From Terriglobia bacterium (GTDB taxonomy: Bacteria > Acidobacteriota > Terriglobia > Terriglobales > Acidobacteriaceae), in contig CAWCQR010000009.1 in NCBI GenBank assembly GCA_963797725.1, forward strand, positions 206,769 through 270,768: a stretch of 64,000 bases of DNA. Direction: 5' to 3'. The first letter of the stretch is position 1. Every line of letters starts with the position of its first letter. The notes beneath the pieces are model-generated. The model saw only the letters and a list, made by a program, of their open reading frames with translations. It was not told the DNA's origin and did not search any database. The position numbers were made by a program, and so were the translations under genes. Below, in pieces: positions 35,995 through 60,343 of this stretch.

Positions 35995-36035
35995 TTAACC
36001 CCGTGGTGCGTCATGCCATGGTTAACCTTTAAGGG

Positions 36036-36063
36036 GAGGGGATGCGAGTGATCGCATCCCCTC
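36036..36063 (+). terminator. strong hairpin (12-bp perfect stem, GTGA tetraloop) after the receptor gene; terminator or attenuator
   Basis: gaggggatgcga (36036-36047), gtga, tcgcatcccctc (36052-36063), then tctgctgtt (a weak U-tract). Confidence 0.65.
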
Positions 36064-36105
36064 TCTGCTGTTAAGCTCTCTGAGGAGTTGAAGTGAAACA
36101 ACGAC

Positions 36106-37611: not shown

Positions 37612-37637
37612 TTTGTTTTAGTTAAAGAGAGACGCGG

Positions 37638-38750: not shown

Positions 38751-38801
38751 CGCTCGGAGCAGTTGATCGCCAGGATTAAGTAAGAAGGAAGTGGGCCGAC
38801 G

Positions 38802-40187: not shown

Positions 40188-40227
40188 ATAGTCTGCCGCC
40201 TGGCCCGGCATCCATCACGCTTGAATT

Positions 40228-41587
40228 TTATTGGTTCACTCTGACCTGGTAGCGAAGTCGCGTCTTGTAGCCGAGAATGCGTTGAATGTCGAGAGCGAGA
40301 CTGTCGAGTCCTGCTTTCGGTGAGGTCTTGCCGCGAACAATTTCAGAGAGATGAACCTCCATCGCTTCGGTCATCAAGGCAGCTTCCGGTATTGTCGGCT
40401 TCAGCTTCGCTACGGGGATGGCGGATAAAAAAGTTGAAGTGTATGGGATGTCTTTTACTTTGGGGTCGTCGTACGTCGATTTCTTTAGCGACCCGCTTCC
40501 TTGCAATGTTTGTTGGACCTGTACCTGGTTGGACATTGCCCACTCGATGAATCGATAGGCTTCGCGAGGATGTTTCGATTCCGCAGGGATGAGATAGGTT
40601 AGACCTTCCATTTGGCTGAAAGATTCAAAGGAATCCGAAGGCACCAGACCGTAACCAATTTTCCCTGCAACCTTGGAGATCTTGGGATCTTCCAGGAATG
40701 CGGCCTGATCGTTCCACAGCAAACCCATGAATACCTGTCCCTGCTGCATTGCGGTTTGCGCTTCATTCCAGCCATAGTTCAGCGTTTCGGGAGGGCTGAA
40801 GGGGATCAGCTTGACGTACTGCTCAGTGGCCGTAACGTTTTGGGGAGAGTTCACCACGACATCGCCATATTTCCAACCGTGCCGAATATCGAGGATGTTC
40901 CCGCCAAACGAATAGGCGAAGTTCAGCCACTCGTACCAAAGCGCGAGTCCTTGCTTTCCCTGAATGTAAGTGCCGTAGAAATGCTCGTCGGGTCGCGTGA
41001 AGAACTCTGCTACCTGCATATACTCCGCCCAAGTGGCAGGCGGTTTCAGTTCGCGACGATAGCGAGCTTTGAAACTTGGTTTGGTTTAACGGGTCATCCA
41101 GAAGATCCTTGCGATAGCACAGGAACGTCGTCAGCCCGGTGAACGGATAACCATAAGTGGCGGTCCCGTAAGAACTGAGTTCGCGCCACCAGTCGGGAAA
41201 TAATTGTTGATCGGGCACGAAGGTGGCGTCATGCAGAGTGGTGTCGGCGAGAAAGGCATCAATCGGTAAGAGCTGATTTTTCTGAACCATAGCGCCAAGC
41301 CACCGGTGCCGCATCACAACTACGTCCAACGCGCCCTCGCGGAAGGTTGGCCCTCGATCGAGATCGCTCATGATCGTTTGATCGTTTTTGTGCAGCACTT
41401 CCACGTGCATGCCGGTCTGCTTTTCGAAGTTGCCGATCATTCCTGTTTTCGTCAGGGAATTGAGAAACCATTCGTCTCCCGCCAAACGGATGGTAAGTGG
41501 TTTTCGCAGGCAACTGAGATGTAAGAAGAGGACAACGAGCAGCGGAATCAGGACGAACAGTTTCTTCCTGGCGAACGACTGTTGCAT
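40228..41587 (-). pseudogene. frameshifted extracellular solute-binding protein (ABC sugar-binding, family 1)
   Basis: Two overlapping ORFs (40823-41587 and 40228-41019) are the N- and C-terminal parts of one SBP. The reading ...CYRKDLLDDPLNQTKF continues as KARYRRELKPPATWAEYMQVAEFF in the other frame if one nucleotide near 41071 is removed. No permease or ATPase genes are nearby. Confidence 0.75.
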
Positions 41588-41715
41588 GGCTGGAATCCTA
41601 AATCATCGACCACGATGGAAATGAAGTATTCACGCGGAAGGATTTCCCCAGTCCCGTTTGAGTAACTTCTTGGCCTTTGGTGATAACCAAGGCTGGGGCC
41701 GCAGGTCAGTCGGTT

Positions 41716-42702
41716 CTACCTCTTGAGAGAATTGCCCGAGAACCACAGGAATTTGACCGGAGCGTCGCTGGAATTAATGTTCGAATGAGTCATGGATTGG
41801 TCCGGACGAATCATATAGGCCATTCCCGGACGCTGAACGCGCAACTCGGTGCCGATGAATGCCAGGCTGTTGCCATCAATCGCTGCCCAGATTTCTTCCT
41901 GGCCTGGATTGTGCGGATGCGGTTCACCCATGGTCATCGGATCGATCGTGACTGTAATCAGATCGCCGATGGTGGCCAAGCCGTCTGTTTTGGAGAAGAG
42001 ATCTCTTACTACGTGGGCCCAATGTCCGGAGGCGCCAGGAAGCGTGTACGGCGATGCAGCCATCGGGGTCCTGACCGGAACTTGGCGCTCGTTCGTAACC
42101 AGCATTTGTTTGGCGGGAACAAAGTTCGGGGGAGTCGGTTCGCTGACCACATATGTTGTTAGCTCTCCGTCACCTGTGTTCTTCATGACGAATTCCATGT
42201 CCGCCGGAACGAACACCGCAATGTCTTTGTGGAGCGTCGCGGTTTTCCCGCCAGCAGTAATTTCTCCAGTTCCACTCGCCACGTAAAAGACAATTTGCTC
42301 ATGGTCCAGACGTGAGGGTGTTGTGGAATTACCCGGGGCAAGACGTCCGAGCGCAAGGAAATTGGCGGCTTGCAATACCGCTCCGGGCTGTGGTGGATTG
42401 AAGTTGTCGCCGCGAGTGAGAATATCGCGCAGGACCAAAGAGCCAAAGGCGTGACGTGGCATCGAATCGTGCCAGTCACCGATGAACATATCAATTCTTC
42501 GGTCCAGCGAATCCCTGGATGGCTGATACCGCACCGCTCCCGGTCCGTCGAAACTATTGCCTCCAGCGGAGGGCGTCGTTACGGGCGGCTTGGCGACGAC
42601 TTGCGCCGCTACAGGCGCCAATGAGATGACAAGCAACGACAATGCCATGCCAACAAAATTTCTGCCGGACAACCAGCTTCTGCTTCTCTGGATTTCGTTC
42701 AT
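41716..42702 (-). CDS. secreted bicupin protein, paralog 1 (function unknown)
   Basis: 328 aa. Signal peptide. Second barrel has cupin motifs GEPHPHNPGQEEIW and HSNIN. Aligns end to end with 52010-53005 and 53036-53887. Confidence 0.75.
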   Translation of the reverse strand: MNEIQRSRSWLSGRNFVGMALSLLVISLAPVAAQVVAKPPVTTPSAGGNSFDGPGAVRYQPSRDSLDRRIDMFIGDWHDSMPRHAFGSLVLRDILTRGDNFNPPQPGAVLQAANFLALGRLAPGNSTTPSRLDHEQIVFYVASGTGEITAGGKTATLHKDIAVFVPADMEFVMKNTGDGELTTYVVSEPTPPNFVPAKQMLVTNERQVPVRTPMAASPYTLPGASGHWAHVVRDLFSKTDGLATIGDLITVTIDPMTMGEPHPHNPGQEEIWAAIDGNSLAFIGTELRVQRPGMAYMIRPDQSMTHSNINSSDAPVKFLWFSGNSLKR

Positions 42703-42763
42703 TGGTCTCCCCCCGACTCCTCGATGTCAGTTGTCTGTCACGTGTTCGTTGAGATTGATCTGG

Positions 42764-43783
42764 TTAGCGTGCCATCGCGTAAGCGAGACCGTCGGCACCT
42801 GCGCCTGCGTCAATGATGTGCTGAACCTTCCAATCCGAAAGACTAATGACAGCTACCTTTCCACTCTGGTCGCACGAGACGTACGCGAACTTGCCATCGG
42901 GAGAAATGATCACCTCCTGAGGTCTGGCAGGAAGATCAATCGTATGGGCTACCTTCATGGTGTTGAGATCCACCACACCCACCTGATGCACCAGTGGCAG
43001 CGCGATGACGAGCCAGTGTCCGTCAGCGGTCGGCGCGCTTCCGTAGCCGAGACCGGGTAACTGTACCCAGGTCTTAATTTTATTGGTGGCGGTATCGATG
43101 ACGGCAAGTTGAGGCTTGGTTACATCGGAAGTGAAAACCAGCTTGTCGTCAACCGAAAGCGAGATGCGTTGAATCTGAGGAGAAACCGGAATGATGGCGA
43201 GAGTTCGTCGCGCGTCAAGATCGAGAACGGAGACGGTTCCCGGCCCCACGTTTGCGGTGTAACCGCGGTGACCGTCGCGGGTGATCGCCAGCATGTGCGA
43301 CTGCTCCTGCCCGGTTGGAACGGAGCCGATGATTTTCAGCGTGGCCGGATCAATGATGCTGACTGATTTTTCCAGTTCGGTTGTAACGTACAACAGGCCG
43401 TCCTTCGGATTGAACACCGGACAGTGCGGCCGCACACCTTTGCCAAAATCAACATTGCCAGTAACTTTTCGGGTGGCCAGATCGACGACCACCATGTTGG
43501 TGCCGTCAGTGCCGGGTTGGCCCACGCCCGAGTTCCCGTAGATCGGGACGTAGACAAGTTTGCCGTCCGGGGATGTCGTGATCTCGTGTCCAGTCACTCC
43601 GCCTTCCGGAACCTCGGCCACCTGCCGTCCGGCGGCGGGATCGATGATGCCTACACTATTGGTTCCTTTATTCGCCACGAGAAGCGTTCCGCTTTGTGAA
43701 GACTTCGGAGAAGTTTGGGCAGACATAAGAAAGGAGAGTAATGGTACGACCGCCAGCATGAATATCGGTTGCAATCGTCGCAT
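42764..43783 (-). CDS. secreted YVTN-type beta-propeller repeat protein
   Basis: 339 aa. Signal peptide. Repeated units of about 40 residues (SPDGKLVYVP, TRDGHRGYTANVGPGTVSVLD, SPDGKFAYVSCDQSGKVAVI). Confidence 0.8.
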   Translation of the reverse strand: MRRLQPIFMLAVVPLLSFLMSAQTSPKSSQSGTLLVANKGTNSVGIIDPAAGRQVAEVPEGGVTGHEITTSPDGKLVYVPIYGNSGVGQPGTDGTNMVVVDLATRKVTGNVDFGKGVRPHCPVFNPKDGLLYVTTELEKSVSIIDPATLKIIGSVPTGQEQSHMLAITRDGHRGYTANVGPGTVSVLDLDARRTLAIIPVSPQIQRISLSVDDKLVFTSDVTKPQLAVIDTATNKIKTWVQLPGLGYGSAPTADGHWLVIALPLVHQVGVVDLNTMKVAHTIDLPARPQEVIISPDGKFAYVSCDQSGKVAVISLSDWKVQHIIDAGAGADGLAYAMAR

Positions 43784-43994
43784 TTAAAACCTCGTTCGTG
43801 ACAAGCTAACTGAACGCGCGCAATCCGGGAGGGAAAATTTCAGCTAATCATAATATCATAATGCTTGAAATTCCGAGTCTTTCAACGTCTGCGCAGCACT
43901 TCACTTGCGCAGATCCGAATCTCCTACTTCCCGCGCAATGAAATCGATGGCGGATGACAAAAAAGATGACTACGCCATATTTGTCAGCGCTTCG

Positions 43995-44957
43995 TTAGTA
44001 TTCCCCGGTTACCACATTCACCAAGGGCTCACCCTTTGCAAAACGCTCCACCTGAGCGCTGGCCAAGACAAAAAGCCGCTTCATGAACTTTGCGCTGTCC
44101 CCAGCAACGTGCGGAGTGATGAGGAGATTGGGAGCGTTCCATAAGGGATGTCCCGGCGGGAGCGGCTCCGGGTCGGTCACATCGATGGCGGCGCGAAGTC
44201 TTTTTTCATTGAGCGCTTGCAGCAACGCGTCACTGTCGACGATCCCGCCGCGTGCGGCATTCACCAGCAGAGCCCCGGACCTCATCATCGCGAGACGTTT
44301 GGCATCCATCAAGTGCCGCGTTTCGGAAGTTAACGGCACGATCAAAATCACGATGTCAGACTGGCCCAGAAACTCGTCCAGCTTGCTCTCTGGTTCAACC
44401 CCCACTCGCGGGGTTCGCGCGATACGCAAAAACTTTGGACCGAACGGCGCGAGCCGCGTTTCTATGGCCTTTCCGATGGATCCATACCCGACGATCAGAA
44501 TTGTGGAGTCCGCCACTTCGTCCAGCAGCGCGGGGGGATTTGTGTCTGCACCATGCGATAGACGGTAGATCTCCCGTGCTTCCAGGCGCCGGCTCCAGTC
44601 ACCCTGCTTCTGGAGATCAACATAGAACGGAAGGTATTTCTGCATCGCCAGGACTGCAGTCACTGCCCATTCGGCGGTCGGAATGTCATGAACTCCGCGG
44701 GCATCGCAAAAGATGATCTCGGGAGGAAAGATTCGCCGGACCAAATCCACCCCCGCCCAGGGAGCCTGAACCACGCGTACACCTTTTAAGTGCGACCACT
44801 GACTCTGCACTACTTTTGGAGACGGCGACAATGGGATCCAGAACTCTATTTCAGTTGCGGTCTGCGCATCTCTGGCGATTCTGACTACCTGGGCCTGCTT
44901 TGTGAAGTCTTTCAACAGCGCGTCGTCCACGGCCGCATCCACTCCGACTCGAACCAT
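43995..44957 (-). CDS. D-isomer-specific 2-hydroxyacid dehydrogenase family protein
   Basis: NAD fold ILIVGYGSIGKAIE, RLRAAIDVTDPEPLP and ITPHVAG. ATG 44957 with GGAGG 5 nt upstream is preferred over the track start 44996. Confidence 0.85.
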   Translation of the reverse strand: MVRVGVDAAVDDALLKDFTKQAQVVRIARDAQTATEIEFWIPLSPSPKVVQSQWSHLKGVRVVQAPWAGVDLVRRIFPPEIIFCDARGVHDIPTAEWAVTAVLAMQKYLPFYVDLQKQGDWSRRLEAREIYRLSHGADTNPPALLDEVADSTILIVGYGSIGKAIETRLAPFGPKFLRIARTPRVGVEPESKLDEFLGQSDIVILIVPLTSETRHLMDAKRLAMMRSGALLVNAARGGIVDSDALLQALNEKRLRAAIDVTDPEPLPPGHPLWNAPNLLITPHVAGDSAKFMKRLFVLASAQVERFAKGEPLVNVVTGEY

Positions 44958-45072
44958 TATTTCCTCCACTTCCACAATATAAGCGGGAAGAGTCAAAGGC
45001 CAAATGCGAAGGACGAGCTTCCGTGGGCAGCAAATTGATTGACGCCCAAGCTAATGGTGGTATCATATCACC

Positions 45073-45528
45073 ATGAAAATGCGCTTGGTGGTTTTAGCTC
45101 TCTCCCTGGTCGTTATCTCGCTGACCGTCAAAGCTGCAGACATGCCTGCAGGCGGCTTTGCCGGCACATGGAAAGCAAATTTCGCGAAGTCCAAATTTCC
45201 CGGGCCGCCTCCACAGGTGGACATGGCGACCGTCGATCCTGATGGCACGGTCACCATCAACGAAACTACTTCCGAGGGCAAGAGTATTTCCTGGCACTAC
45301 AAGCCGATTGAAGGGCAAGCCGTACCCATTATTGGCCGGGACAATACGACCGTACTGGTAAAAAAAGTGAACGATCACACCAACGAGCAGATCTGGAATT
45401 CCAACGGTAAGACGAATAAGAGCAAAGCGGTCCTGTCGAAAGACGGCAAGACGACGACTTTCACAATGGATGGGACTGACAAAGACGGCAAGCCCTTCCA
45501 CGAACTGGTTGTGTACGACAAACAGTGA
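45073..45528 (+). CDS. small secreted lipocalin-like hypothetical protein
   Basis: 151 aa. Signal peptide. AGTWKANFAKSKF start and a beta-rich repeat pattern. Confidence 0.65.
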   Translation: MKMRLVVLALSLVVISLTVKAADMPAGGFAGTWKANFAKSKFPGPPPQVDMATVDPDGTVTINETTSEGKSISWHYKPIEGQAVPIIGRDNTTVLVKKVNDHTNEQIWNSNGKTNKSKAVLSKDGKTTTFTMDGTDKDGKPFHELVVYDKQ

Positions 45529-45550
45529 AGATTAACCTCACAAGTTTTGC

Positions 45551-45576
45551 CTGCGGCCGGGATCTACCGGCCGCAG
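45551..45576. terminator. bidirectional hairpin between convergent genes
   Basis: ctgcggccgg (45551-45560), loop gatcta, ccggccgcag (45567-45576). Perfect 10-bp GC-rich stem. No clear U-tract on either side. Confidence 0.55.
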
Positions 45577-45722
45577 TCTCAACCCTTCCCGCGGAAGAAT
45601 ACTCTTAACGCTTCTCCCCGTTACGTTGTGAGCAAATTGTTGTTTTGCGGATAATCATAGGCGTCTGACGCACAGTGGCGAAGATGCCAGCGGTGGCGAC
45701 AGAAAGCTCTGCCCAACAAAAC

Positions 45723-47669
45723 TTACGGTAAGGCGAATGCGATTACAGAATCGCCCGCCGTCGTGTCGTAGAAACTGCCGCCGCTCGCGATGGTGACTAC
45801 ATATTGCTTGCCGCCTTTACCCTGATAGGTCATGGGAGTGACGTAAGATCCCGTGTCGAGCTTGGTCTCCCACAACACTTTCCCTGTCGCAGCCTCGAAC
45901 GCGCGGAATCGCTGATCGTTCGTTGCCCCGATGAACAAGAGTCCTCCTGCTGTACTAATCGAACCTCCAAAGTTCAACGTCCCCGTTCCGTGAACGCCTT
46001 TGGCTTCCAGTTCCTCGATGATCCCGAACGGCACCTTCCATGCGACTTCGCCCGTATTCACGTTGATGGCCCAAAGCTGTCCCCAGGGTGGTTGCTGGCA
46101 CGGCCAGAATTTGTCGTTGTTCCAGAATCGTGCATAGAAACCCCAGGGGCTGGTTCGCTCATAGAAGGGATCTGAACCGTCTGCGGTTTTAGTGACCTTG
46201 CCAACGTCGGCAATATCCACGGTATTTATGAAGAGATATCCCAAGGTCGGGTTGAACGACATGCCGGGCCAGTTCGTCGTCCCAAGCGTGCCCGGAAAAA
46301 CTACAGTCAGCTTGGGGCCATAGTGGGTATAGGGACCGCCGCTTTGCATGCCGCCTTCGGTGGCGAAAAGATCGGTGCAGAATTTCTTTTGTTCGGGGGT
46401 CACCGAAGCGATTTCGTCAGGGCCGAAAGTGTTGCGCCCCAATGGTGGCGGCTTCAGAGGAAACGGTTGTGTGGGCCAGCTGGCTTCGCCAGGTATTTCG
46501 CTCGCGGGTACTGGGCGTTCCTCCACTCCGTAGATCGACTTACCATCGCGCCGATCGAGGATAAACATCAGGCCGTTCTTCCCAATGATCGCTACCGCAG
46601 GAATCTTTGTTCCGCCTTGAACTACATCCATGAGCACGGGAGAAGATTCGAGGTCGTAGTCCCAGGTGTCATGATGAACGACCTGGAAATACCACGCGAG
46701 TTTCCCGGTGTCGGCATGGAGCGCGACTAACGAGTTGCCAAAGAGATTCTTGCCCTTTCGATCGGAGCCATAAAAGTCGTACGCGGGCGATCCGAAGGGA
46801 AGAAATATCAAACCTCTCTCGAGGTCGAGACTCATAAAGCCCCAGACGTTGGTACCGGAGCGGTTCTTCCAGCTATTACCCTCCCAGGTGTCATTGCCGG
46901 TTTCACCGGGGTGAGGCACAGAATGAAAACGCCACACCAACTTCCCGGTGTGTACGTCCCACGCTCGCGGATCGCCCGCAGCGCCCGTGCCCGGCGACTC
47001 TTGAATCTGGCCGCCGACGATAGCGAGATCCTTATAGATAGTGACTGGCGAGGTGACGTCAAATTGGGCGTTCGGGAAACCATTCAAAATGTCCGTCTTT
47101 ATGTCTACGGCGCCGTTCTCTCCGAAGCCTGCGGTGGGCTTTCCGGTTTCTGCATTCAGGGAGATCAAGCGCCCGTCGCTCGTTCCGAAAAGAATCGATG
47201 CAGGCGTTCTGGAATCTCCATGCCAGAAAGCCACGCCACGGCCTGCTGGCCGGCCATGATCCAGTTTGTAAGACCATAATTCCTGACCTGTCTCTGGGTC
47301 GAGGGCGATGACAGTTCCGTACGGCGTCGGCATGTACAGCTTGCCATTTACGACGATAGGAGTGGCCTGGGAGGAACGTCTCCCGCCGCCTCTGCCAGCC
47401 GCTCCTGCTGCCAAAGGCCGAGGCCCATCCTTCTTCATGTGATAGGTCCACGCTCGCGTGAGGTTCTGAACATTCTGAGTATTGATCTGGTTGAGAGGAG
47501 AGAATCTGGTGCTTGATTCATCATGACCGTACATCGGCCAATCGGATTGGCACCACGCGAGTGAGCCCGGCAATGCGATCAAGCAGAAAGCGGCAAAAAT
47601 CCCGAGCTTCGCGTTTGACTGGCTGATCATTTGTCCAAATTTTGACGTGCAATATTTTTTCAAGGTCAT
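45723..47669 (-). CDS. secreted PQQ-dependent dehydrogenase (glucose/quinate-type 8-bladed propeller)
   Basis: ALHADTGKLAWYFQVVHHDTWDYD, AINVNTGEVAWKVPFG and repeated W-motif blades. No vicinal Cys pair. The start is set to ATG 47669 (MTLKK...), which forms an ATGA overlap with the upstream stop. The track start is 47693. Confidence 0.9.
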   Translation of the reverse strand: MTLKKYCTSKFGQMISQSNAKLGIFAAFCLIALPGSLAWCQSDWPMYGHDESSTRFSPLNQINTQNVQNLTRAWTYHMKKDGPRPLAAGAAGRGGGRRSSQATPIVVNGKLYMPTPYGTVIALDPETGQELWSYKLDHGRPAGRGVAFWHGDSRTPASILFGTSDGRLISLNAETGKPTAGFGENGAVDIKTDILNGFPNAQFDVTSPVTIYKDLAIVGGQIQESPGTGAAGDPRAWDVHTGKLVWRFHSVPHPGETGNDTWEGNSWKNRSGTNVWGFMSLDLERGLIFLPFGSPAYDFYGSDRKGKNLFGNSLVALHADTGKLAWYFQVVHHDTWDYDLESSPVLMDVVQGGTKIPAVAIIGKNGLMFILDRRDGKSIYGVEERPVPASEIPGEASWPTQPFPLKPPPLGRNTFGPDEIASVTPEQKKFCTDLFATEGGMQSGGPYTHYGPKLTVVFPGTLGTTNWPGMSFNPTLGYLFINTVDIADVGKVTKTADGSDPFYERTSPWGFYARFWNNDKFWPCQQPPWGQLWAINVNTGEVAWKVPFGIIEELEAKGVHGTGTLNFGGSISTAGGLLFIGATNDQRFRAFEAATGKVLWETKLDTGSYVTPMTYQGKGGKQYVVTIASGGSFYDTTAGDSVIAFALP

Positions 47670-49348
47670 TTTCCCGTGTACACAACGCGCCAAATCGAAC
47701 CTGAGCCATCATCGCTTACCAGCAGGGAGCCATCCGGTGCTACCGCAACTCCAACTGGCCGGCCCCAGACACTGTCGTCATCCACAACGAAGCCGCTGAG
47801 AAAATCCTCATATTCCCCGGTCGCAAGCCCGGTCTGATGAAGAGGCACGCGGATGACTTCGTATCCAGCACGGGGCAGCCGGTTCCACGAGCCATGCTCG
47901 GCGGCAAAAATATCTCCCTGATATTCCGCGGGAAATTGTTTGCCATCGTAGAACGTCATCTGCAATGACGCATTATGCGGCTGCAATATCACGTCGGGCG
48001 TGATGACTTTGTCCTTCAGTTCGGGGTGTTTCCCCGCGAGACGCGGTTCCTCGTGGCCTCCCACGTACCACCATGGCCAGCCATAGAAGCCGCCCTCCTT
48101 GACATGAGTGATGTAGTCGGGCACGAGATTATTTCCCAGCCCGTCGCGTTCATTCACGGAACACCACAACTCGCCGGTCTTCGGATTGATCGCCAGCCCG
48201 ACAGCATTGCGAATCCCCGAGGCGTATACGCGTAAACCTGACCCGTCGGGGTTGTATTCGAGAATCGCAGCCCGATTCTTTTCTTCGGGTGCGTCGTCAA
48301 CATTTTCGTGCGACCCGACCGAGACAAACATTTTCTTGTCGTCCGGAGAAAACTGGACGTCCCTCGAACGGTGATGCCCGCCGCTGGGAAGATCGGCCAG
48401 ATGTTGCGGTGGCCCAGCGCTGGTCAGATCGCCGCTGTGATAGGGGAAGCGAACGACCGAGTCCATGTTGGCGATATACACCCACTGCGGATCGGGTCCG
48501 GAAGGATAGAAGGCAATGCCAAAAGGCGTGTTCAACCCCGTTGCGAAAATCTGTACCTGCTCAGGCTTGCCATCCGCGGCGATTCCGCGGAATACCTTGA
48601 TGTCGCCGGCACTGGTTTCAGCCAGGAAAATGTCGCCGTTGGGGGCTCTGCGCATCAGGCGGGGATTGTTGAGACCCGAAGCATAAAGTTCAACTTTGAA
48701 ACCTTTGGGGGCCTTCGGCCAGGCATTTTCAGGACGCGCAACAATCTTCGGGCCCGCCGCCGCCGACGAAGTCGCAAATGGCGCAGGAAGGTCCTGCACC
48801 CTGATGTGTCGAATCGTGCCGGGTTCTTCGAACCTGTAATCGGTGAACGGCGGAGCTGGTGGCGGCGCGTTTGATTTTGCAGATGGAACCGGCGCCGCAG
48901 AATGATTGGCTGGCGCGAGCTCCAATTGTGCTCCGGTCAGCGATTTTAGAAACGTGACCACTTGCCAGCGTTGTTCTTTCGACAACGCTGCCCAGGAAGG
49001 CATTCCACTACTGGCGTCGCCGCGAGTGATGTACCAGAAGATTGCTCCGTCAGAAGCTTTTTGAACATTTCCCCCGGCTAACGGAGGGACATTGCCCGAA
49101 CCTTCACCCGATGTTCCATGGCAACCGGCGCAATTGATGGTGTAGACGCCTCGGCCGCCCAATATCGCTTCCGATTTTCCCCCGTACGGATTCTTTGTCT
49201 GCTGAGCGGATGCAGGCGCACCGTGGAACGAAGTGGTTTGATCCTGGGAAGTCGCCAGCCTGGAAAGCTCCAACGAAACTAGTACGAGAAGGGAAGGCAC
49301 CAAAGCCCTGTCGAGGAAGCAGCTGAGGGATTTATGGCGTCGTCTCAT
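47666..49348 (-). CDS. cytochrome c domain fused to a PQQ-dependent sugar dehydrogenase (sorbosone dehydrogenase / sGDH family)
   Basis: 560 aa. Signal peptide. CAGCHGTSGEG haem-c motif. 6-bladed propeller part with GLNTPFGIAFYP and HGSWNR. Confidence 0.85.
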   Translation of the reverse strand: MRRRHKSLSCFLDRALVPSLLVLVSLELSRLATSQDQTTSFHGAPASAQQTKNPYGGKSEAILGGRGVYTINCAGCHGTSGEGSGNVPPLAGGNVQKASDGAIFWYITRGDASSGMPSWAALSKEQRWQVVTFLKSLTGAQLELAPANHSAAPVPSAKSNAPPPAPPFTDYRFEEPGTIRHIRVQDLPAPFATSSAAAGPKIVARPENAWPKAPKGFKVELYASGLNNPRLMRRAPNGDIFLAETSAGDIKVFRGIAADGKPEQVQIFATGLNTPFGIAFYPSGPDPQWVYIANMDSVVRFPYHSGDLTSAGPPQHLADLPSGGHHRSRDVQFSPDDKKMFVSVGSHENVDDAPEEKNRAAILEYNPDGSGLRVYASGIRNAVGLAINPKTGELWCSVNERDGLGNNLVPDYITHVKEGGFYGWPWWYVGGHEEPRLAGKHPELKDKVITPDVILQPHNASLQMTFYDGKQFPAEYQGDIFAAEHGSWNRLPRAGYEVIRVPLHQTGLATGEYEDFLSGFVVDDDSVWGRPVGVAVAPDGSLLVSDDGSGSIWRVVYTGK

Positions 49349-49417
49349 GTTTTCTCGACTACGGTTATATTATATGACAATTATCTGTGCAGCCTCGTAA
49401 ACGAGTCCAGAGTCTGA

Positions 49418-50656
49418 TCACGGGCGAACGGGAACGAACTGTATACATACCGGCGTGTCCACCTTCACCTCCGTGCCGGTTTTCAAGAGTTTGCCGGAAG
49501 CGCCATCAATTTTGAAGAGCACTACGTTATTGGACAGTTCGTTGGCGGCCAGCAAGTAGGCACCCGTCGGATCGATCTTGAAACTGCGCGGCATGACGCC
49601 CCCTGTAAGCGACTGTTCAACCGCGGTTAGCATTCCGTTCTGCGGATCAATGGAGAACACGCCAATGGTGTCCGGCGCCCTCTCCGTTTCGCTCTTCGTC
49701 CGCCGGTTGGACTCGTAAAGGAACTTTCCGCTGGGGTGAACCTCAATCTCAGCGCTGTGATTACCGCCGAAAAAATCGTGGGGCACGGTGTGGGCGCGTT
49801 GTACCCCAGTCAGAGTGCCTTTCGAAGGATCCCAGGCGTATACGTCCACAATCCCACTCATTTCGCTCAACTGGTACCCGAACTTTCCGGCGGGATCAAA
49901 GGCAAAGTGGCGCGGACCGCCGCCAGGATAAACGGTGGCGAATGGAGGATCGGGCGGCGAAAGTTTTCCGGTCTCCGCGTCGAAACGAAAGATGAGTACC
50001 TTGTCCAGCCCGAGGTCAGAGACAATGGCGTAACGGTTATCGGGAGAAACCAGGATCGAATGGGTGTGCGGCTCGTTTTGAATCGAGCGATCCACGCTAT
50101 GCCCGACATCCTGAATGAAGGCGGTAAGCTCTCCAAGCGAGCCGTCATCCTTTACGCGGACAACCGAGACGCTCCCGCTGCCGAAGTTGGCCATCATCAC
50201 GAATTTTCCGGTTTTGTCGATGGAGATGTAGCAGGTACTGGTACCACTGGCCGGAACGGTGTTCAGGAGACGCAACTTTCCCGTCGCATGATCAATTGCA
50301 AACGCGCTCACGTAAGACGAGTGATCGAGCGGCGGCCCGACGGAAAGTGGATCTTCGCTGACCGCATAAAGGAATCGATGATCGGGAGAGATCGTCAGGA
50401 ATGAAGGATTGATTATCTCGGCGGCCAGCTCGGGCTCGCTGATTTCGCCCGTCGCTGGGTGAAAGAGGCTGACGTAAATTCCCTTGCTCTTGCTCTCGCC
50501 AAGTCCATACGGCTTGCTGTGATGCACGTACTTGAACCCGGTATAGGTGCCGACATACATGAAGTAGTCGCTGTCCTGGGACGGCGTGGTCTGGCCCGCC
50601 AGAACGGCAAGTCCGAATGTGACAACGAAAAAGAACACGTATTGAATACGTCTCAT
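49418..50656 (-). CDS. secreted 7-bladed beta-propeller lactonase family protein (tandem copy 2)
   Basis: 412 aa. Signal peptide. Lactonase-type blades (SPDHRFLYAV, SPDNRYAIVSDLGLDKV, HPSGKFLYESNR). Close paralog of 50713-51939. Confidence 0.85.
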   Translation of the reverse strand: MRRIQYVFFFVVTFGLAVLAGQTTPSQDSDYFMYVGTYTGFKYVHHSKPYGLGESKSKGIYVSLFHPATGEISEPELAAEIINPSFLTISPDHRFLYAVSEDPLSVGPPLDHSSYVSAFAIDHATGKLRLLNTVPASGTSTCYISIDKTGKFVMMANFGSGSVSVVRVKDDGSLGELTAFIQDVGHSVDRSIQNEPHTHSILVSPDNRYAIVSDLGLDKVLIFRFDAETGKLSPPDPPFATVYPGGGPRHFAFDPAGKFGYQLSEMSGIVDVYAWDPSKGTLTGVQRAHTVPHDFFGGNHSAEIEVHPSGKFLYESNRRTKSETERAPDTIGVFSIDPQNGMLTAVEQSLTGGVMPRSFKIDPTGAYLLAANELSNNVVLFKIDGASGKLLKTGTEVKVDTPVCIQFVPVRP

Positions 50657-50712
50657 GAAGGTTCCTGATCTCCCTGCCGCGAGTCCGAAGTCGTGGAAAA
50701 CGGTCGCCGCCC

Positions 50713-51939
50713 CTACTTTCCCGAGGGAACAAATACGATCGATACTGGCACATCAATTTTCAAATTGGTATTCGTCGGAGTGAGTCGACCGGTCTGACTG
50801 TCTATTCGAAAAAGCCGGACGTTCCCGGTCAGTTCATTAGCAGAAAACAAGTACGATCCGCTGGGATCGATCGCAAAATTGCGTGGCATGGTGCCTCCCG
50901 GCGGCACCTGCTCAATCTCTGTCAAGGTGCCTTTCAACGGGTCGATCGCGAATACACCGATCGTGTCCGGTCCCCACAAGTTGGGTCCGCGGAAGCGGCG
51001 ATTGGACTCGTAAAGGAATTTCCCGTTTGGATGAATGGCGATTTCAGCGCTGTCGCTTGATCCAATGAAATCGGGGGGAAGCGTCCTCGCGTCCTGCACA
51101 CTGGTGAAAGTACCTTGCCTAGGATCCCAAGCCAGGACAGTGACAAAGCCGCTCATTTCTTTAAGCGAATATCCAAATTTGCCGGCGGCATCGAAAACAA
51201 AATGACGCGGACCTCCGCCGGGTTCCATGGCAACGAACGGCGCCTCGTCTGGCGAAAGCGCGCCGGTGGCGGCGTCGAAGCGATAGATGAACAGCTTGTC
51301 CACGCCAAGATCGGAAACGATGGCATAGCGATTGTCCGGTGAAACGTCGATGGAGTGGGGGTGAGCCTGCGACTGGAAGGAAGGGTCCTTGCCTCTCCCG
51401 ATGTGCTTCATGAAGGCAGTTTGTTCACCGAGCGACCCGTCGTCCTTGATTCTCAAAACCGTGACGCTGCTGCTGCCAAAGTTTGCCATCAGTACGTAGT
51501 GGCCGGTCTTATCGATGGAGAGGTAGCACGTGCTTGTTCCTCCAGTAGGCAGCGTGTTCAGCAAGTGCAGCTTGCCGGTTTTGGAATCGATTGCGAAGGC
51601 GCTCACGTACGATGCGTGATCGAAATCCGGTCCCAGCGATAAGGGGTCCTCGGTCGCGACATAGAGGAACCGTTGATTGGGATGAACCGCAAGAAACGCG
51701 GGATTAACAATCTCGGCGGCAAGTTCAGGCTTGCTCACAGCACCCGTCGCAGGTTGGAAGCGGCTTACGTAGATCCCCTTGCTATTGCTTCCGCCGTCCG
51801 GAAGCCCTTCCTTCATGTAAGTGAAGCCGGTATACGTGCCGAAATAAACAAAGTACTCGGCCGCGGGCGCGCTCCAGGCACGAGGGACGGAAAGGACGAT
51901 TAAAAAAGCGAGTAAGGCAAGACGCAGGGTCGGCTTCAT
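50713..51939 (-). CDS. secreted 7-bladed beta-propeller lactonase family protein (tandem copy 1)
   Basis: The start is set to ATG 51939 (MKPTLRLALLAFLIVLSVPRAWSA, a signal peptide). The track start 52050 would overlap the upstream gene. Same blade motifs as copy 2. Confidence 0.85.
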   Translation of the reverse strand: MKPTLRLALLAFLIVLSVPRAWSAPAAEYFVYFGTYTGFTYMKEGLPDGGSNSKGIYVSRFQPATGAVSKPELAAEIVNPAFLAVHPNQRFLYVATEDPLSLGPDFDHASYVSAFAIDSKTGKLHLLNTLPTGGTSTCYLSIDKTGHYVLMANFGSSSVTVLRIKDDGSLGEQTAFMKHIGRGKDPSFQSQAHPHSIDVSPDNRYAIVSDLGVDKLFIYRFDAATGALSPDEAPFVAMEPGGGPRHFVFDAAGKFGYSLKEMSGFVTVLAWDPRQGTFTSVQDARTLPPDFIGSSDSAEIAIHPNGKFLYESNRRFRGPNLWGPDTIGVFAIDPLKGTLTEIEQVPPGGTMPRNFAIDPSGSYLFSANELTGNVRLFRIDSQTGRLTPTNTNLKIDVPVSIVFVPSGK

Positions 51940-52009
51940 GGATTGTTCTTCTGCATGTAACTGTTCGTGGTCGCGGGAGCGCGGATCACTCGCGCGAAAT
52001 ATCGAAACT

Positions 52010-53005
52010 TTACTGATGCGCGGGAACAACAGCATGGGTGTAGTTGTCACCTTCAGGGAATTTTGCGAAATATAAAAACTTCACCGGCTTGTCGCTGATG
52101 TTGATGTTGGAGTGTATGGTTGCCGAATCGGGCGGCAACATGTAGGCCATCCCCGGTTTTTGTATCCGCAATTCGGTTCCCATCATGATCAGACTCGTCC
52201 CATCGATTGCGGCCCAGACTTCTTCCTGACCCGGACGATGCGGGTGCGGTTCCCCCAGTGTCAGCGGATTGACGGTGACGGTGATCACGCTCTGTTCCGT
52301 AGCCAGCCCATCAGCCGGCGAAAACAGTTCTCTGACAATGTGCGCCCAATGACCGGACGCTCCGCCAACAATGTAAGGATCGCCGCCCGCGGGCGTCCTC
52401 TGACGCGCCAGTCCCTCATCTTTGACCAACATCTTTTCCTTCGGATGAAACCCGCCTGGCGTGGGCTCGTTGATGACATACATGGTGAGTGGTTCGTCGC
52501 CGATGGACTTCATCACGAATTCAATCCCAGCAGGCATCAGAACAGCGACGTCTTTATGTAGTTTTGCAGTGTCGCTACCCGCTGTGATTTCACCCTCACC
52601 GCCGAGAACATAATAGACTTCCTGCTGGCCGTCGAGCCGCGAGGGAGTTGTCCATGCGCCAGGAGCGAGCCGTCCGTAGGCGAGAAAGTTGGCGGCGCGC
52701 AGCACAGCGCTTTTCTGCGGTGGCGCGAAGTTATCTCCGCGTACGAGAATGTCGCGCAGAACCAGTGAGCCATGCTCCGATCGCGGCATCGATCCCTGCC
52801 AGTCGCTGATAAACAGGTCGATTCGGCGGTCGTTCGGTTCCCGCTCCTTTGCATATTTCACGAACTCCGGGCCCGGATACGAATTGATTCCGTTGATAGC
52901 GTTTTTCGTTCCACTCGATGGCGGTGCTGCTTGCGCCAATACCAGCGCGGGCAGTATCAGGGCCAGTGCGGATGCGGTCAAAAACGCAAGCGTTGCGCGG
53001 GGCAT
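52010..53005 (-). CDS. secreted bicupin protein, paralog 2 (function unknown)
   Basis: 331 aa. Signal peptide. GEPHPHRPGQEEVW and HSNIN. Long identical runs with paralog 1. Confidence 0.75.
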   Translation of the reverse strand: MPRATLAFLTASALALILPALVLAQAAPPSSGTKNAINGINSYPGPEFVKYAKEREPNDRRIDLFISDWQGSMPRSEHGSLVLRDILVRGDNFAPPQKSAVLRAANFLAYGRLAPGAWTTPSRLDGQQEVYYVLGGEGEITAGSDTAKLHKDVAVLMPAGIEFVMKSIGDEPLTMYVINEPTPGGFHPKEKMLVKDEGLARQRTPAGGDPYIVGGASGHWAHIVRELFSPADGLATEQSVITVTVNPLTLGEPHPHRPGQEEVWAAIDGTSLIMMGTELRIQKPGMAYMLPPDSATIHSNINISDKPVKFLYFAKFPEGDNYTHAVVPAHQ

Positions 53006-53035
53006 AGCGCCTCCTCGGATGTTAGGCCTTCTGGT

Positions 53036-53887
53036 CTACGGTCTGGGTTCGTGCGGATGGTATCGGCCAAAATAGAGAAACTTAACCTGCGAATCTTCAT
53101 TCTGGTTGATGTTGGTGTGCGGTGTCTTGTTATCAGGAATGTGGTAAAACGCCATCCCCGGAGTTTGGCGCCGCAACTGGTTGCTCACGAATGCGAGGCT
53201 TGTGCCATCCAGAGCGGTCCAGACTTCTTCAATGTCATCGTGATCTACGATGTGAGGCTGACCCATGGTTAGCGGGTCAATGGTCACAGTCAATACGCTC
53301 TGCAATGTGCCCAGGCCGTCTGCAGTTACGAAAATAGTCTTCACGATGTGAGCCCAGTGCCCGTCGCTGGAACTGATAGGAAGCTTGTTCTCATCCTTGA
53401 CGAGAATGATTGCGTTCGGCCGGAAACCTGGAGGCGTAGGTTCGTTGATCACGTACATTGCGAGGGGTTCATCTCCTGTGTTCTTCAGGGTGAACTCCAG
53501 ATTTGCCGGCACTAGGATCGCGATATTGCGATAGAGATCTGCGGTCTGTCCCGCTGCCGTTGCGGTACCGTGACCAGATTGGATGAAGTAGATCTCTTGT
53601 TGTCCGTCAAGGCGGGTTGCCTTTGTCGAGGCGTGGGGCGCCAATGTTGCGTAGGTGTGGGAGTTGACGAAGCGAAGGACGGCGCCTTTTTGAGTGGGAT
53701 TATGCGGGTCACCGCGTGTAAAAATATCTCTTTCAGCGAGAGATCCGTGTGTCATCCGCTCGGTAGAGTTATGCCAGTCGCCAAAATAAAAATCGATGCG
53801 ATCGCCGGTGGTTTGGCCCAGTGCCAGGGACGGCACGACAACGCATGAAGCCAGGATCAGTGATGCAAGAATTCTCCTCATCATCAA
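53036..53887 (-). CDS. secreted bicupin protein, paralog 3 (divergent metal motif)
   Basis: 283 aa. Signal peptide. Same architecture, but the metal motif reads GQPHIVDHDDIEEVW and HTNIN. The first codon in the track is TTG 53887; ATG 53884 is an alternative. Confidence 0.7.
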   Translation of the reverse strand: MMMRRILASLILASCVVVPSLALGQTTGDRIDFYFGDWHNSTERMTHGSLAERDIFTRGDPHNPTQKGAVLRFVNSHTYATLAPHASTKATRLDGQQEIYFIQSGHGTATAAGQTADLYRNIAILVPANLEFTLKNTGDEPLAMYVINEPTPPGFRPNAIILVKDENKLPISSSDGHWAHIVKTIFVTADGLGTLQSVLTVTIDPLTMGQPHIVDHDDIEEVWTALDGTSLAFVSNQLRRQTPGMAFYHIPDNKTPHTNINQNEDSQVKFLYFGRYHPHEPRP

Positions 53888-54146: not shown

Positions 54147-55001
54147 ATGAAATTGATTCGATTTGGCGAGCGTGGTCAGGAAAAGCCAGGCGTCCTTTTG
54201 AAAGATGGGAGCCGCATTGATGCTTCCGGGTTCGGTTCCGACTATGACGAAGCTTTCCTGGGCACCGGCGGATTGGGGAAGCTCGAGTCCTGGCTTGGCA
54301 AAAATTCCGCTTCCGCCCCTCGTGTTTCGCCATCGACGCGCCTGGGCTCGCCGGTTTGCCGGCCCAGCAAAATCGTGTGCATCGGACTCAACTACCGCGA
54401 TCATGCGGCGGAAACCAAAGCCGAAGCACCGAAGGAGCCAGTTCTCTTCTTTAAGGCGACTACTTCGCTGGTAGGCCCGAACGATGACCTGGTAAGGCCG
54501 AGGAACTCGACCAAGGTGGACTGGGAGGTTGAGTTGGCGCTCGTTATCGGGAAGAAGGCCTCGTACATTTCGCAGGAGCAGGCCCTCGATCATGTCGCCG
54601 GATACGCGCTGCACAACGACTACTCCGAGCGAAACTTCCAGTTGGAACGGGGAGGCCAGTGGGTAAAGGGAAAGAGCGCGGACACTTTTGCCCCGCTGGG
54701 GCCATTCCTCGCGACTCGCGACGAGATTCCTGACGCCGGCAATCTTCCGATGTGGCTGAAGGTAAATGGGCAGTTTCGCCAAAAAAGCTCAACCGCAAAC
54801 ATGATCTTTGATGTCGCCACGCTGGTTTCATACGTCAGCCAGTTCATGACGCTTCTTCCCGGGGACATGATCAGCACTGGAACTCCGGCGGGAGTTGGCA
54901 TGGGCATGAATCCGCCTGTGTTTCTGAAGGCGGGGGACGTGGTTGAACTCGGCATTGACAGTCTGGGAGAATCGCGGCAGCTGGTTACGGACTACAAATA
55001 G
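54147..55001 (+). CDS. fumarylacetoacetate hydrolase (FAH) family protein
   Basis: 284 aa. KIVCIGLNYRDHA, WEVELALVIGK and GTPAGVG are FAH-fold signatures. AAGGAG upstream of the ATG. Confidence 0.9.
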   Translation: MKLIRFGERGQEKPGVLLKDGSRIDASGFGSDYDEAFLGTGGLGKLESWLGKNSASAPRVSPSTRLGSPVCRPSKIVCIGLNYRDHAAETKAEAPKEPVLFFKATTSLVGPNDDLVRPRNSTKVDWEVELALVIGKKASYISQEQALDHVAGYALHNDYSERNFQLERGGQWVKGKSADTFAPLGPFLATRDEIPDAGNLPMWLKVNGQFRQKSSTANMIFDVATLVSYVSQFMTLLPGDMISTGTPAGVGMGMNPPVFLKAGDVVELGIDSLGESRQLVTDYK

Positions 55002-55002
55002 C

Positions 55003-59542: not shown

Positions 59543-59596
59543 CGCGAATGATCACCGTGCTCCGAGATAGCTGAACTTTCGTGATTTTCAGAGTCC

Positions 59597-60343
<747 letters not shown>

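Follow-up and report, generated by a model that had tools for sequence, protein, structure and literature searches.

The window analysed here, a 64,000-nucleotide (nt) stretch of a Terriglobia bacterium genome (assembly GCA_963797725.1, contig CAWCQR010000009.1, positions 206,769 to 270,768 of the forward strand), encodes three paralogous proteins, B1, B2 and B3, that each consist of two cupin barrels (bicupins) and are predicted to be secreted. These bicupins are a new family of the cupin superfamily in a recognisable pathway, and their step is missing from current schemes of that pathway. It is very probable that they belong to periplasmic sugar oxidation. The fuller proposal, that they are accessory metalloproteins of the periplasmic oxidation of aldoses to aldonates by pyrroloquinoline quinone (PQQ)-dependent dehydrogenases and act as a Lewis acid on the sugar, is made tentatively and with somewhat less than even confidence, and the chemistry suggested within it, isomerisation or ring opening, is doubtful.

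Membership of the pathway is concluded from the order of the gene cluster, which is conserved in 69 loci, from the co-amplification of bicupins with lactonases, from their pairing with PQQ dehydrogenases (PQQ-DHs) in three settings, and from neighbouring genes of cytoplasmic aldonate metabolism. A catalytic or metal-dependent role is suggested by the close to 100% conservation of the metal ligands of the C-terminal barrel (C-barrel) in the B1, B2 and distant clades, together with the signal peptides predicted in all clades.

Conservation of the gene cluster in Terriglobia

The window proteins were mapped onto loci found in a scan of one genome per GTDB species, which gave 69 loci, all from Acidobacteriota; several of these overlap on one contig, and the counts are therefore not fully independent. 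A gene for a propeller of the PF10282 lactonase (Lac) or YVTN type is found in 65 of the 69 loci, and one for a PQQ-DH or for a fusion of cytochrome c with a glucose/sorbosone dehydrogenase (cyt c-GSDH) in 61. The order B3-B2-Lac-Lac-cyt c-GSDH-PQQ-DH-(2-hydroxyacid dehydrogenase)-YVTN-B1-SBP, in which SBP is an orphan extracellular solute-binding protein, recurs in a Sulfotelmatobacter-like group, with genes for an FAH-family hydrolase and an MFS transporter divergent from B3. The opposite-strand FAH gene divergent from B3 is a conserved arrangement. The minus strand of the window carries the same order: B3, B2, Lac2, Lac1, cyt c-GSDH, PQQ-DH, 2-hydroxyacid dehydrogenase, YVTN, B1 and SBP.

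The initial annotation of this DNA had described a repeated module of a bicupin beside a propeller. What is conserved is instead one cluster of ~13 kb with bicupins at both ends. The adjacency of bicupin and propeller, whose absence from other genomes had been named as a refutation, is conserved in the loci: among 160 bicupin genes, 85 abut a propeller gene, 55 only another bicupin gene and 8 a PQQ-DH or cyt c-GSDH gene. The YVTN-B1 adjacency, however, is lineage-specific, and the partner found across the family is the PQQ-DH. A YVTN gene precedes B1 only in the Sulfotelmatobacter-like group. B1 follows a lactonase gene in the Acidobacteriaceae loci, for example in the order B3-B3-B3-B2-Lac-Lac-Lac-Lac-B1-SBP of locus L049, and comes straight after the PQQ-DH gene, without a YVTN gene, in loci of the Granulicella/Edaphobacter type. 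The PQQ-DH gene lies directly upstream of B1 in loci L025, L034, L037, L038, L041 and L042.

The genes for bicupins and lactonases have multiplied jointly, reaching five and four tandem copies, respectively, in some lineages (L049, L031). A strict one-to-one stoichiometry of the two is ruled out by bicupin:lactonase counts of 3:2, 4:2, 4:3, 5:3 and 5:4. Furthermore, B1 adjoins the SBP gene in most loci, and three loci (L009, L021 and L051) have an additional B3-like bicupin gene after the SBP gene.

PQQ dehydrogenase as the family-wide partner

In L009 (12414-15653), the additional B3-like bicupin gene is located 22 nt upstream of a gene for a 759-residue quinohaemoprotein that combines PQQ and cytochrome c domains, and the same arrangement is seen in L021 and L051. 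The domain order of the L009 quinohaemoprotein is unusual in that the cytochrome c domain (residues 488-559 of 759) interrupts the propeller.

A distant clade of the family is only 27-30% identical to the window bicupins. One of its members, P0221 (27% identical to B2), is encoded 24 nt upstream of a 651-residue PQQ-DH that is 53% identical to the window PQQ-DH and is followed by a GntR/FCD regulator. Divergent from P0221 are two genes without known function and genes for an SMP-30/gluconolactonase and an MFS transporter; the SMP-30 lactonase of the distant clade is of a different family from PF10282 and not homologous to it. A metagenome scan seeded with the distant clade returned 77 loci, and a PQQ-DH gene stands immediately before or after the bicupin gene in at least 19 of them, a high share given that many of the contigs are shorter than 3 kb. 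These GC-rich loci were mapped by tblastn with Pfam checks, as greedy calling of open reading frames (ORFs) gave some antisense artefacts. Recurring neighbours in the distant clade are an enolase-superfamily protein, TonB-dependent receptors, a PfkB kinase, a PF04199 'cyclase', a metallo-beta-lactamase-fold protein, a Vgb/SGL-like propeller, a 337-residue protein and a 106-residue ABM-like protein. The 337-residue protein is found in about ten metagenome loci and has a weak Aldose_epim match (E 0.008).

Bicupin and PQQ-DH are thus paired in three independent settings, namely B1 behind the PQQ-DH, the additional B3-like bicupin with the quinohaemoprotein, and the distant clade. The most general partner of the bicupins is the PQQ-DH, more so than the YVTN or lactonase propeller. 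Since the distant clade also adjoins an orthologous PQQ-DH, the link to PQQ-dependent sugar oxidation extends across the bicupin family.

Two further observations concern the distant clade. Members such as P0221 and P0247 carry a Gly/Pro/Arg-rich C-terminal tail with a conserved '...ATV(A/K)G.PIK' end, and the Terriglobia proteins are without this tail. In addition, the window encodes on its plus strand (18910-19899) a secreted 329-residue protein without a family match that is 40% identical to the 337-residue neighbour of the distant clade and may be a mutarotase-like component.

The three paralogs and their metal site

B1 and B2 are 62% identical over 305 residues (BLASTP, E 3e-132), B2 and B3 51% (E 4e-90) and B1 and B3 48% (E 1e-84), and all three can be aligned end to end (MAFFT). 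Pfam places two Cupin_2 matches in B1, two in B2 and one above threshold in B3, and the AlphaFold2 model of B2, for which 38 sequences were aligned, shows a two-barrel bicupin fold with a mean predicted local distance difference test (pLDDT) score of 86. The Cupin_2 matches and the model agree on two tandem cupin beta-barrels per chain. B1, B2, B3 and their orthologues begin with hydrophobic stretches that end at A-x-A/Q-type sites and are predicted to be signal sequences, and such predicted signal peptides are carried by all clades of the family. Export of the bicupins by the twin-arginine translocation (Tat) pathway is ruled out, as the twin Arg is not kept in orthologues, and so is the lipoprotein status of B3 that its LASC motif might indicate, because the Cys has no conserved lipobox context in orthologues. 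In the B1 and B2 clades, the signal peptide is separated from the first barrel by a conserved peptide of low pLDDT at residues ~30-60 (SGTKNAINGINSYPGPEFVKY in window B2, GGNSFDGPGAVRY in B1). This peptide is missing in B3 and in the distant clade, and may be a docking or processing segment.

The C-barrel of B2 carries the motif H254-x-H256-x4-E261/E262 ... H298-x3-N302. The N-terminal barrel (N-barrel) has S122, L124 and F163 at the positions of the His ligands and retains only E129, and the N-barrels of all three paralogs are without the three His ligands. Cupin motif 1 (HxH...E) and motif 2 (H...N) are thus present in the C-barrel of B1 and B2, absent from the N-barrel and remodelled in B3, where the sequence PHIVDHDDIEE is found at residue 211. 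The initial annotation had read the three proteins correctly in these respects: the paralogous ORFs and their identical runs, which are at equivalent positions in B1 and B2, the signal peptides, the N-barrel without metal ligands, the classical motif of the C-barrel and its altered form in the third copy all agree with the alignments, and the last of these proved to be a feature of a whole clade.

The metal site was surveyed in 223 non-redundant members from the loci (57 of the B1, 43 of the B2, 62 of the B3 and 61 of the distant clade). H254, H256, E261/E262, W264, H298 and N302 show essentially no variation across the B1, B2 and distant clades, with the metal ligands kept in 42-43 of the 43 members of the B2 clade. 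The 62 members of the B3 clade have either the motif PH[VI]VDH[TD]DIEE or PHPAPNEDTSDIEE, of which the latter is without the second His, and have gained a His at position 290 (H290). The polar residues of the N-barrel are kept within Terriglobia and not in the distant clade. Because the C-barrel ligands are invariant and the N-barrel polar residues are not kept in the distant clade, the C-barrel site is judged, from residue conservation, to be the defining functional feature of the bicupin family. Proteins of the B3 type would then be variants or partners.

Extent of the family and database matches

A word-indexed search returned 663 relatives, of which all the best ones are from Acidobacteria, and the names attached to them go no further than 'cupin domain-containing' or 'mannose-6-phosphate isomerase-like'. 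When 1.84 billion cluster representatives were searched exhaustively with a profile, 499 matched at E<=1e-3 and 123 at E<=1e-30. The bicupin family is small. About 14 of the representatives listed are fused double bicupins with four barrels and 534-598 residues (e.g. P0121, P0122 and P0125). These fusions mirror the tandem B3 and B2 genes, which hints that bicupins act in pairs.

Pfam and NCBIfam hold no family-specific model for the bicupins and give generic cupin matches only, those of the window proteins in Pfam being limited to Cupin_2, CENP-C_C, Cupin_1 and Auxin_BP. Sequence searches of PDB chains with B2 and with family profiles likewise returned only generic single-barrel cupin matches and no family assignment; for the C-barrel profile, BacB ranks first among PDB sequences (E 9.5e-5). 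Relatives of solved structure reach no more than ~16% identity. With the whole B2 model, Foldseek found 505 PDB matches at E<=1e-3 with bicupins and other cupins at the top, which are generic bicupins of 10-17% identity. Bicupins of the ureidoglycine aminohydrolase type have the best template modelling (TM) scores, followed by oxalate decarboxylase, MncA, YxaG, BacB and AerE. The C-barrel modelled in isolation (pLDDT 90) is nearest to small metal cupins (Foldseek E ~1e-6 to 1e-5), among which phosphomannose isomerases, putative sugar-phosphate isomerases, KdgF and cupin phosphoglucose isomerase stand out. Because identities are 10-26% and the Foldseek E-values nearly equal, these structural matches cannot tell cupin chemistries apart.

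Literature searches (bicupin with lactonase or periplasm; Acidobacteria with cupin and PQQ) returned nothing on the bicupin family. The earlier placement of the bicupins outside characterised families is borne out by the profile and sequence searches, in which only generic Cupin_2 matches and ureidoglycine aminohydrolase matches of 16-24 bits were obtained. The bicupins are regarded as a new family because the defining features examined, namely those of ureidoglycine aminohydrolase, of oxalate decarboxylase, MncA and YxaG, of phosphomannose isomerase (PMI), and of KdgF, CelOCE and DUF386 are not found in them.

The gene cluster in the window

The features of the cluster and its surroundings are listed in Table 1. 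The gaps within the cluster are short: 61 nt between YVTN and B1, 30 nt between B3 and B2, 56 nt between Lac2 and Lac1, and 69 nt between Lac1 and cyt c-GSDH. The gap between B2 and Lac2 is 70 nt provided that Lac2 starts at the ATG at 51939, and cyt c-GSDH and PQQ-DH overlap by 4 nt provided that PQQ-DH starts at the ATG at 47669; with these two starts, the spacings given by the initial annotation are right. Operon assignments were made without the results of promoter and terminator scans of 40000-54300, which were not clearly above shuffled sequence (13 versus 7.0±3.1 and 19 versus 15.2±4.1).

Table 1. Bicupin genes, cluster members and surrounding features in the window
Feature	Coordinates	Strand	Basis and remarks
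B3 bicupin, 283 residues, predicted secreted	53036..53887	-	ORF translation, Cupin_2, alignment; C-barrel motif remodelled (PHIVDHDDIEE)
B2 bicupin, 331 residues, predicted secreted	52010..53005	-	Cupin_2, alignment, AlphaFold2 model; canonical 3His-1Glu C-barrel site
B1 bicupin, 328 residues, predicted secreted	41716..42702	-	Cupin_2, alignment; canonical metal site; invariably comes last among the bicupins, before the SBP gene
Lac2, secreted 7-bladed lactonase-family propeller	50713..51939	-	PF10282, E 1e-105; ORF extends to 52050, ATG at 51939 precedes the signal peptide
Lac1, secreted 7-bladed lactonase-family propeller	49418..50656	-	PF10282, E 5e-104
Cytochrome c + glucose/sorbosone dehydrogenase fusion (sGDH/AA12-like 6-bladed propeller), secreted	47666..49348	-	PF13442 + PF07995
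PQQ-DH, soluble, secreted, glucose/quinate/shikimate (mGDH) family	45723..47669	-	PF01011, E 4e-192
D-isomer-specific 2-hydroxyacid dehydrogenase, cytoplasmic, optional in the cluster	43995..44996	-	PF02826; missing from several syntenic loci
YVTN-type 7-bladed propeller, secreted	42764..43783	-	TIGR02276 repeat
Orphan extracellular solute-binding protein (SBP_bac_1/8)	40228..41587	-	Pfam; split by a frameshift near 41066-41073
FAH-family hydrolase, divergent from B3	54147..55001	+	NF053535, 354 bits (cut-off 500); nearest to 2,4-didehydro-3-deoxy-L-rhamnonate hydrolase
MFS transporter, D-galactonate (aldonate) subfamily	54943..56397	+	TIGR00893, 231 bits; conserved beside FAH
Enolase-superfamily acid-sugar dehydratase + SDR	58370..60340	-	Nearest to L-rhamnonate dehydratase; cytoplasmic aldonate branch
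Array: TonB-dependent-type barrel, FAD/BBE oxidase, third PF10282 propeller, haem c + Cu2_monoox_C protein	32497..40187	+	

Pfam and NCBIfam agree with the identities that the initial annotation had given to the lactonases, the cytochrome c sugar dehydrogenase and the PQQ-DH. Its statement that every neighbour of assignable chemistry forms or opens sugar lactones in the periplasm stands as far as the placement in a conserved sugar-lactone pathway is concerned. Not every neighbour is periplasmic, because the 2-hydroxyacid dehydrogenase encoded between PQQ-DH and YVTN has no signal peptide. Lac1 and Lac2 match the lactonase model over its full length (positions 2-344 of 344 of the PF10282 profile), and both are below the cut-off of the 6-phosphogluconolactonase equivalogs of NCBIfam. 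The window PQQ-DH is without a membrane domain, its match to TIGR03074 beginning only at profile position 154. The YVTN propeller scores 100 bits against TIGR03866, the model associated with PQQ catabolism (cut-off 287), and passes the generic YVTN repeat model alone. The SBP gene of the window consists of two overlapping ORFs in frames -1 and -2, while orthologues such as that in L002 (454 residues, 455 codons) are intact; the split gene is either a pseudogene or the product of a frameshift in assembly or sequencing.

Further observations concern the intergenic spaces and the more distant genes. The 726 nt between PQQ-DH and the 2-hydroxyacid dehydrogenase (44997-45722) hold only overlapping ORFs of 135-151 residues on both strands (45073-45528, plus; 45094-45501, minus) and the best promoter-like match of the region (45039-45066, plus). 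At 23816-25332 on the minus strand, 20 kb from the cluster and beside an MFS gene, a 4Fe-4S ferredoxin-like gene is found together with a 225-residue gene without known function. The counterparts of this pair in L009 (3340-4976; 80% and 69% identical) lie between cyt c-GSDH and PQQ-DH, and a gap of like size separates these two genes in other related genomes, which suggests that the pair is a mobile sub-module of the same system. The plus-strand array at 32497-40187 is convergent to the bicupin cluster. Its barrel protein has a CarboxypepD_reg domain, and a 461-residue protein joins a CxxCH haem motif to a Cu2_monoox_C domain. This array may belong to the oxidative sugar system of the cluster.

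Proposed pathway and role of the bicupins

On the basis of the family assignments, the cluster would encode a periplasmic route from aldose via lactone to aldonate, followed by aldonate import and a non-phosphorylative cytoplasmic branch of the 6-deoxyhexonate type. The sugar would enter via the TonB-dependent-type barrel and be oxidised at C1 by the soluble PQQ-DH and the cyt c-GSDH, after which the lactone would be opened by the PF10282 lactonases. The aldonate would then be imported by the galactonate-type MFS transporter and broken down by the enolase-superfamily dehydratase, the SDR and the FAH-family hydrolase. The substrates may be 6-deoxyhexoses; we infer the substrate class, the metal and the chemistry alike.

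In this route, the single metal of the C-barrel, held by His254, His256, Glu261/262 and His298, would act as a Lewis acid on the sugar. The bicupin reaction would be a non-redox ring opening or anomerisation, or an aldose-ketose or epimer isomerisation, which gives the anomer-specific dehydrogenases the right anomer or isomer. Different paralogs could serve different sugars, and the B3 clade with its remodelled site could be a variant or non-catalytic partner. On general chemical grounds, the acidic periplasm of bacteria in acid soils would slow both spontaneous mutarotation and lactone hydrolysis, so that enzymes would be needed on both sides of the dehydrogenase, and slow steps at acid pH would explain the joint amplification of bicupins and lactonases.

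PQQ glucose dehydrogenases are anomer-specific, and mutarotase genes commonly go with aldose 1-dehydrogenases in non-phosphorylative pathways. Isomerisation or ring opening is suggested because both are common among the carbohydrate-related metal cupins matched, because BacB, an isomerase, tops the matches of the C-barrel profile, and because YhcH sets a precedent in addition to the mutarotases typical of aldose 1-dehydrogenase pathways. YhcH is a zinc protein whose sole task is to speed the opening of a sugar ring on behalf of the enzyme that follows, and anomerisation is catalysed by metals themselves (PMC8141875).

Several points weigh against this proposal. No experiment or diagnostic residue links the bicupin family to any substrate, and the structural matches, at 10-26% identity and nearly equal Foldseek E-values, favour no particular cupin chemistry. 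Distant-clade loci often hold other anomerase candidates (the 337-residue protein with the weak Aldose_epim match and the 106-residue ABM-like protein), the first of which has its homologue in the window at 18910-19899. Most known mutarotases are metal-independent. Five or six paralogs and fused double bicupins are a lot for a simple helper, and the metal site is partly lost in the B3 clade. Finally, by the logic of MncA (2VQA) and CucA, a cupin with a 3His-1Glu site that is exported by Sec and acquires its fold in the periplasm may well be copper-bound, and copper would point to redox chemistry.

Alternative explanations

The last point leads to an unlikely alternative, in which the bicupins are redox metalloenzymes with Cu, Fe or Mn: an oxidase, dioxygenase or decarboxylase of a sugar, sugar acid or keto-aldonate, or an oxidative cleaver of glycans similar to CelOCE or the lytic polysaccharide monooxygenases (LPMOs). 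The germin-type 3His-1Glu site is that of oxalate oxidase/decarboxylase and quercetinase, which are present among the Foldseek matches. However, the N-barrel lacks the second metal site of oxalate decarboxylase, YxaG and MncA. With the apparent export by Sec, the metal would be taken up in the periplasm, and the bicupins are constantly paired with PQQ-DHs, including forms fused to cytochrome c. A glycan-cleaving form would receive its electrons from the quino(haemo)protein dehydrogenases and release C1-oxidised lactone products for the lactonases to open. LPMOs are driven by a PQQ pyranose dehydrogenase with a cytochrome domain (PMC5960967), and bacterial LPMOs are reduced by c-type cytochromes (PMC8981238). 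The co-amplified lactonases and the nearby FAD/BBE oxidase and TonB-type barrels would be consistent with such a system. CelOCE, a copper enzyme of the cupin type, yields cellobionic acid, and its nearest characterised relatives are BacB and KdgF (PMC11946906), both of which are also found as neighbours of the window C-barrel. CelOCE (9BWF) itself nevertheless appears neither in the listed matches of the PDB sequence searches nor in the top 50 of Foldseek, and it is a monocupin homodimer with a His3-Gln site. Moreover, neither a glycoside hydrolase nor a carbohydrate-binding module is encoded in the cluster, the transporter and the enzymes of the cytoplasm fit monomeric (deoxy)aldonates, and a periplasmic site is ill-suited to insoluble polymers. 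The narrower form, with the bicupins as a novel class of periplasmic oxidative carbohydrate enzymes that use copper (or iron), resemble CelOCE or LPMOs in function and each have a dedicated quino(haemo)protein reductase, is very unlikely.

A role on the product side is quite unlikely. The bicupins would then be metal-dependent lactone hydrolases, or isomerases of delta/gamma-lactones or of aldonates at C2, that complement the propeller lactonases at low pH. This would suit the tandem arrays, in which bicupin and lactonase genes lie side by side and are amplified together, but in the distant clade the link to the dehydrogenase gene is closer than that to the lactonase gene. The nearest whole-protein structures are bicupins of the (S)-ureidoglycine aminohydrolase type (TM scores to the target of 0.73-0.75), enzymes in which the one metal of the C-barrel holds a small alpha-substituted carboxylate, although the bicupins score far under the cut-offs of the corresponding models. 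We know of no cupin-fold lactonase or lactone isomerase; ring-closing dehydrations are known for cupins such as ectoine synthase and RemF (PMC4795551).

It is likewise distinctly improbable that the bicupins are non-catalytic partners of quinoproteins, be it as a binder of sugar or aldonate that works with the orphan SBP, as a structural subunit of the PQQ-DH, or as a handler of metal or PQQ of the MncA type. Pairing with three different PQQ-DH subfamilies and the nearly constant adjacency of B1 to the orphan SBP gene are in line with such a function, as are the fused double bicupins, which suggest oligomeric assemblies, and the tolerance of metal-ligand loss in the B3 clade. Yet the near-invariant metal site, together with N302, W264 and E261/E262 across clades that are 27% identical, resembles an active site, and up to five diverged paralogs per cluster suit substrate diversification better than a chaperone. 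MncA, a periplasmic bicupin without known catalytic function, is among the structural matches, but it is Tat-exported and the bicupins have no conserved Tat motif.

Extremely improbable, and rejected on the specificity of the neighbouring genes, is a pathway for non-sugar substrates (quinate/shikimate or aromatics) with the bicupins as ring-cleaving dioxygenases and the PF10282 proteins as lactonising enzymes: quinate dehydrogenase is within the mGDH family, fungal carboxymuconate lactonising enzyme within PF10282, FAH-family hydrolases occur in the gentisate pathway, and gentisate dioxygenase is a bicupin among the profile matches, but its likeness is limited to one barrel (E 1e-6), the enolase-superfamily protein scores best as an L-rhamnonate, arabinonate or galactonate dehydratase and not as a muconate cycloisomerase (235 versus 96 bits), the FAH protein scores best as a hydrolase of the deoxy-rhamnonate pathway, the transporter is of the galactonate type, and distant loci carry SMP-30 gluconolactonase, PfkB kinase and LacI/GntR regulators.

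Significance

Terriglobia are among the most abundant bacteria of acid soils and peat, and their uptake and oxidation of sugars from plants and microbes are poorly understood. The cluster is conserved in dozens of Terriglobia genomes, with bicupins in five or more copies that are tied to PQQ-DHs across very distant relatives, and an assigned function of these proteins would close a gap in the understanding of periplasmic (non-phosphorylative) sugar oxidation. An anomerase or 'openase' activity, if true, would reveal what acid-adapted bacteria put in place of spontaneous reactions that stall when the pH is low. Were the bicupins copper oxidative enzymes, CelOCE would be joined by a second carbohydrate oxidase system of the cupin type, one that has a natural redox partner and is of biotechnological interest, namely a bacterial redox system of PQQ dehydrogenase, cupin oxidase and lactonase that breaks down glycans or oligosaccharides in acid soils. 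The misleading database label 'mannose-6-phosphate isomerase-like' is corrected for this family.

Comparison with known systems

The best whole-chain matches of the window bicupins are the (S)-ureidoglycine aminohydrolases DR1152 (1SFN), EF2996 (1SEF), YlbA (1RC6) and Arabidopsis UGlyAH (4E2Q), with TM scores to the target of 0.64-0.75. These enzymes also combine a metal-free N-barrel with one metal in the C-barrel, and the weak NCBIfam matches are consistent with this likeness. However, identity is 10-15%, and the window bicupins differ in being secreted, in their His-x-His...Glu...His site and in having no purine or allantoin genes nearby. Identity with this enzyme is rejected, as the scores against TIGR03214 and NF008373/6 are 16-24 bits at cut-offs of 200-445 bits and neither the gene context nor the cytoplasmic location applies.

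MncA, the periplasmic manganese bicupin of Synechocystis, is similarly a secreted bicupin of unsettled function and, like the oxalate decarboxylase OxdC, among the top Foldseek matches. Both have metal sites in both barrels and are 13-16% identical to the window bicupins, which have no N-barrel site and no conserved Tat motif. An identity of the oxalate decarboxylase, MncA or YxaG type is rejected, since none of B1, B2 and B3 has metal sites in two barrels. BacB and AerE are bicupin isomerases in the Foldseek list that act by a proton shift. They differ from the window proteins in being cytoplasmic enzymes of antibiotic biosynthesis with ~14% identity and an unrelated gene context, and their metal sites are in both barrels.

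CelOCE shares with the window bicupins that it is a cupin-type metalloprotein of carbohydrate conversion, and its product is an aldonic acid (PMC11946906). It is a back-to-back monocupin homodimer that binds copper by His-His-His-Gln and acts on insoluble cellulose outside the cell, whereas the window bicupins have a Glu ligand and one site. A cooperation of propeller and cupin has its analogy in aldos-2-ulose dehydratase/isomerase (AUDH) of Phanerochaete, in which a 7-bladed propeller and cupin folds reportedly process an oxidised sugar (Claesson et al. 2012). AUDH is one fused fungal polypeptide that is not in the top 50 Foldseek matches listed, whereas the proteins described here are separate and their propellers belong to other families.

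The C-barrel is nearest to archaeal PMI (7ZVM/7ZVY), cupin phosphoglucose isomerase (1J3P) and KdgF (5FQ0/5FPX), with TM scores of 0.7-0.8. These enzymes are single-barrel, cytoplasmic and 15-23% identical to the window C-barrel, and the window bicupins have no match to the PMI (PF01238/PF01050), KdgF-specific or DUF386 (PF04074) models in Pfam. An identity as KdgF, a monocupin of ~110 residues from uronate, pectin and alginate loci, is rejected on the weak match (E 0.035), the identity of 15-17% in Foldseek, the bicupin architecture and the lack of lyase or KduI/KduD genes nearby. The JGI name mannose-6-phosphate isomerase is rejected as a generic COG label without a match to the PMI models. 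What the small metal cupin isomerases and ring-openers would share with the bicupins is a single metal that acts as a Lewis acid in a non-redox reaction of a sugar and so supplies the enzyme that follows, and YhcH, the DUF386 zinc anomerase, whose likeness to the bicupins is functional only, would be their functional analogue.

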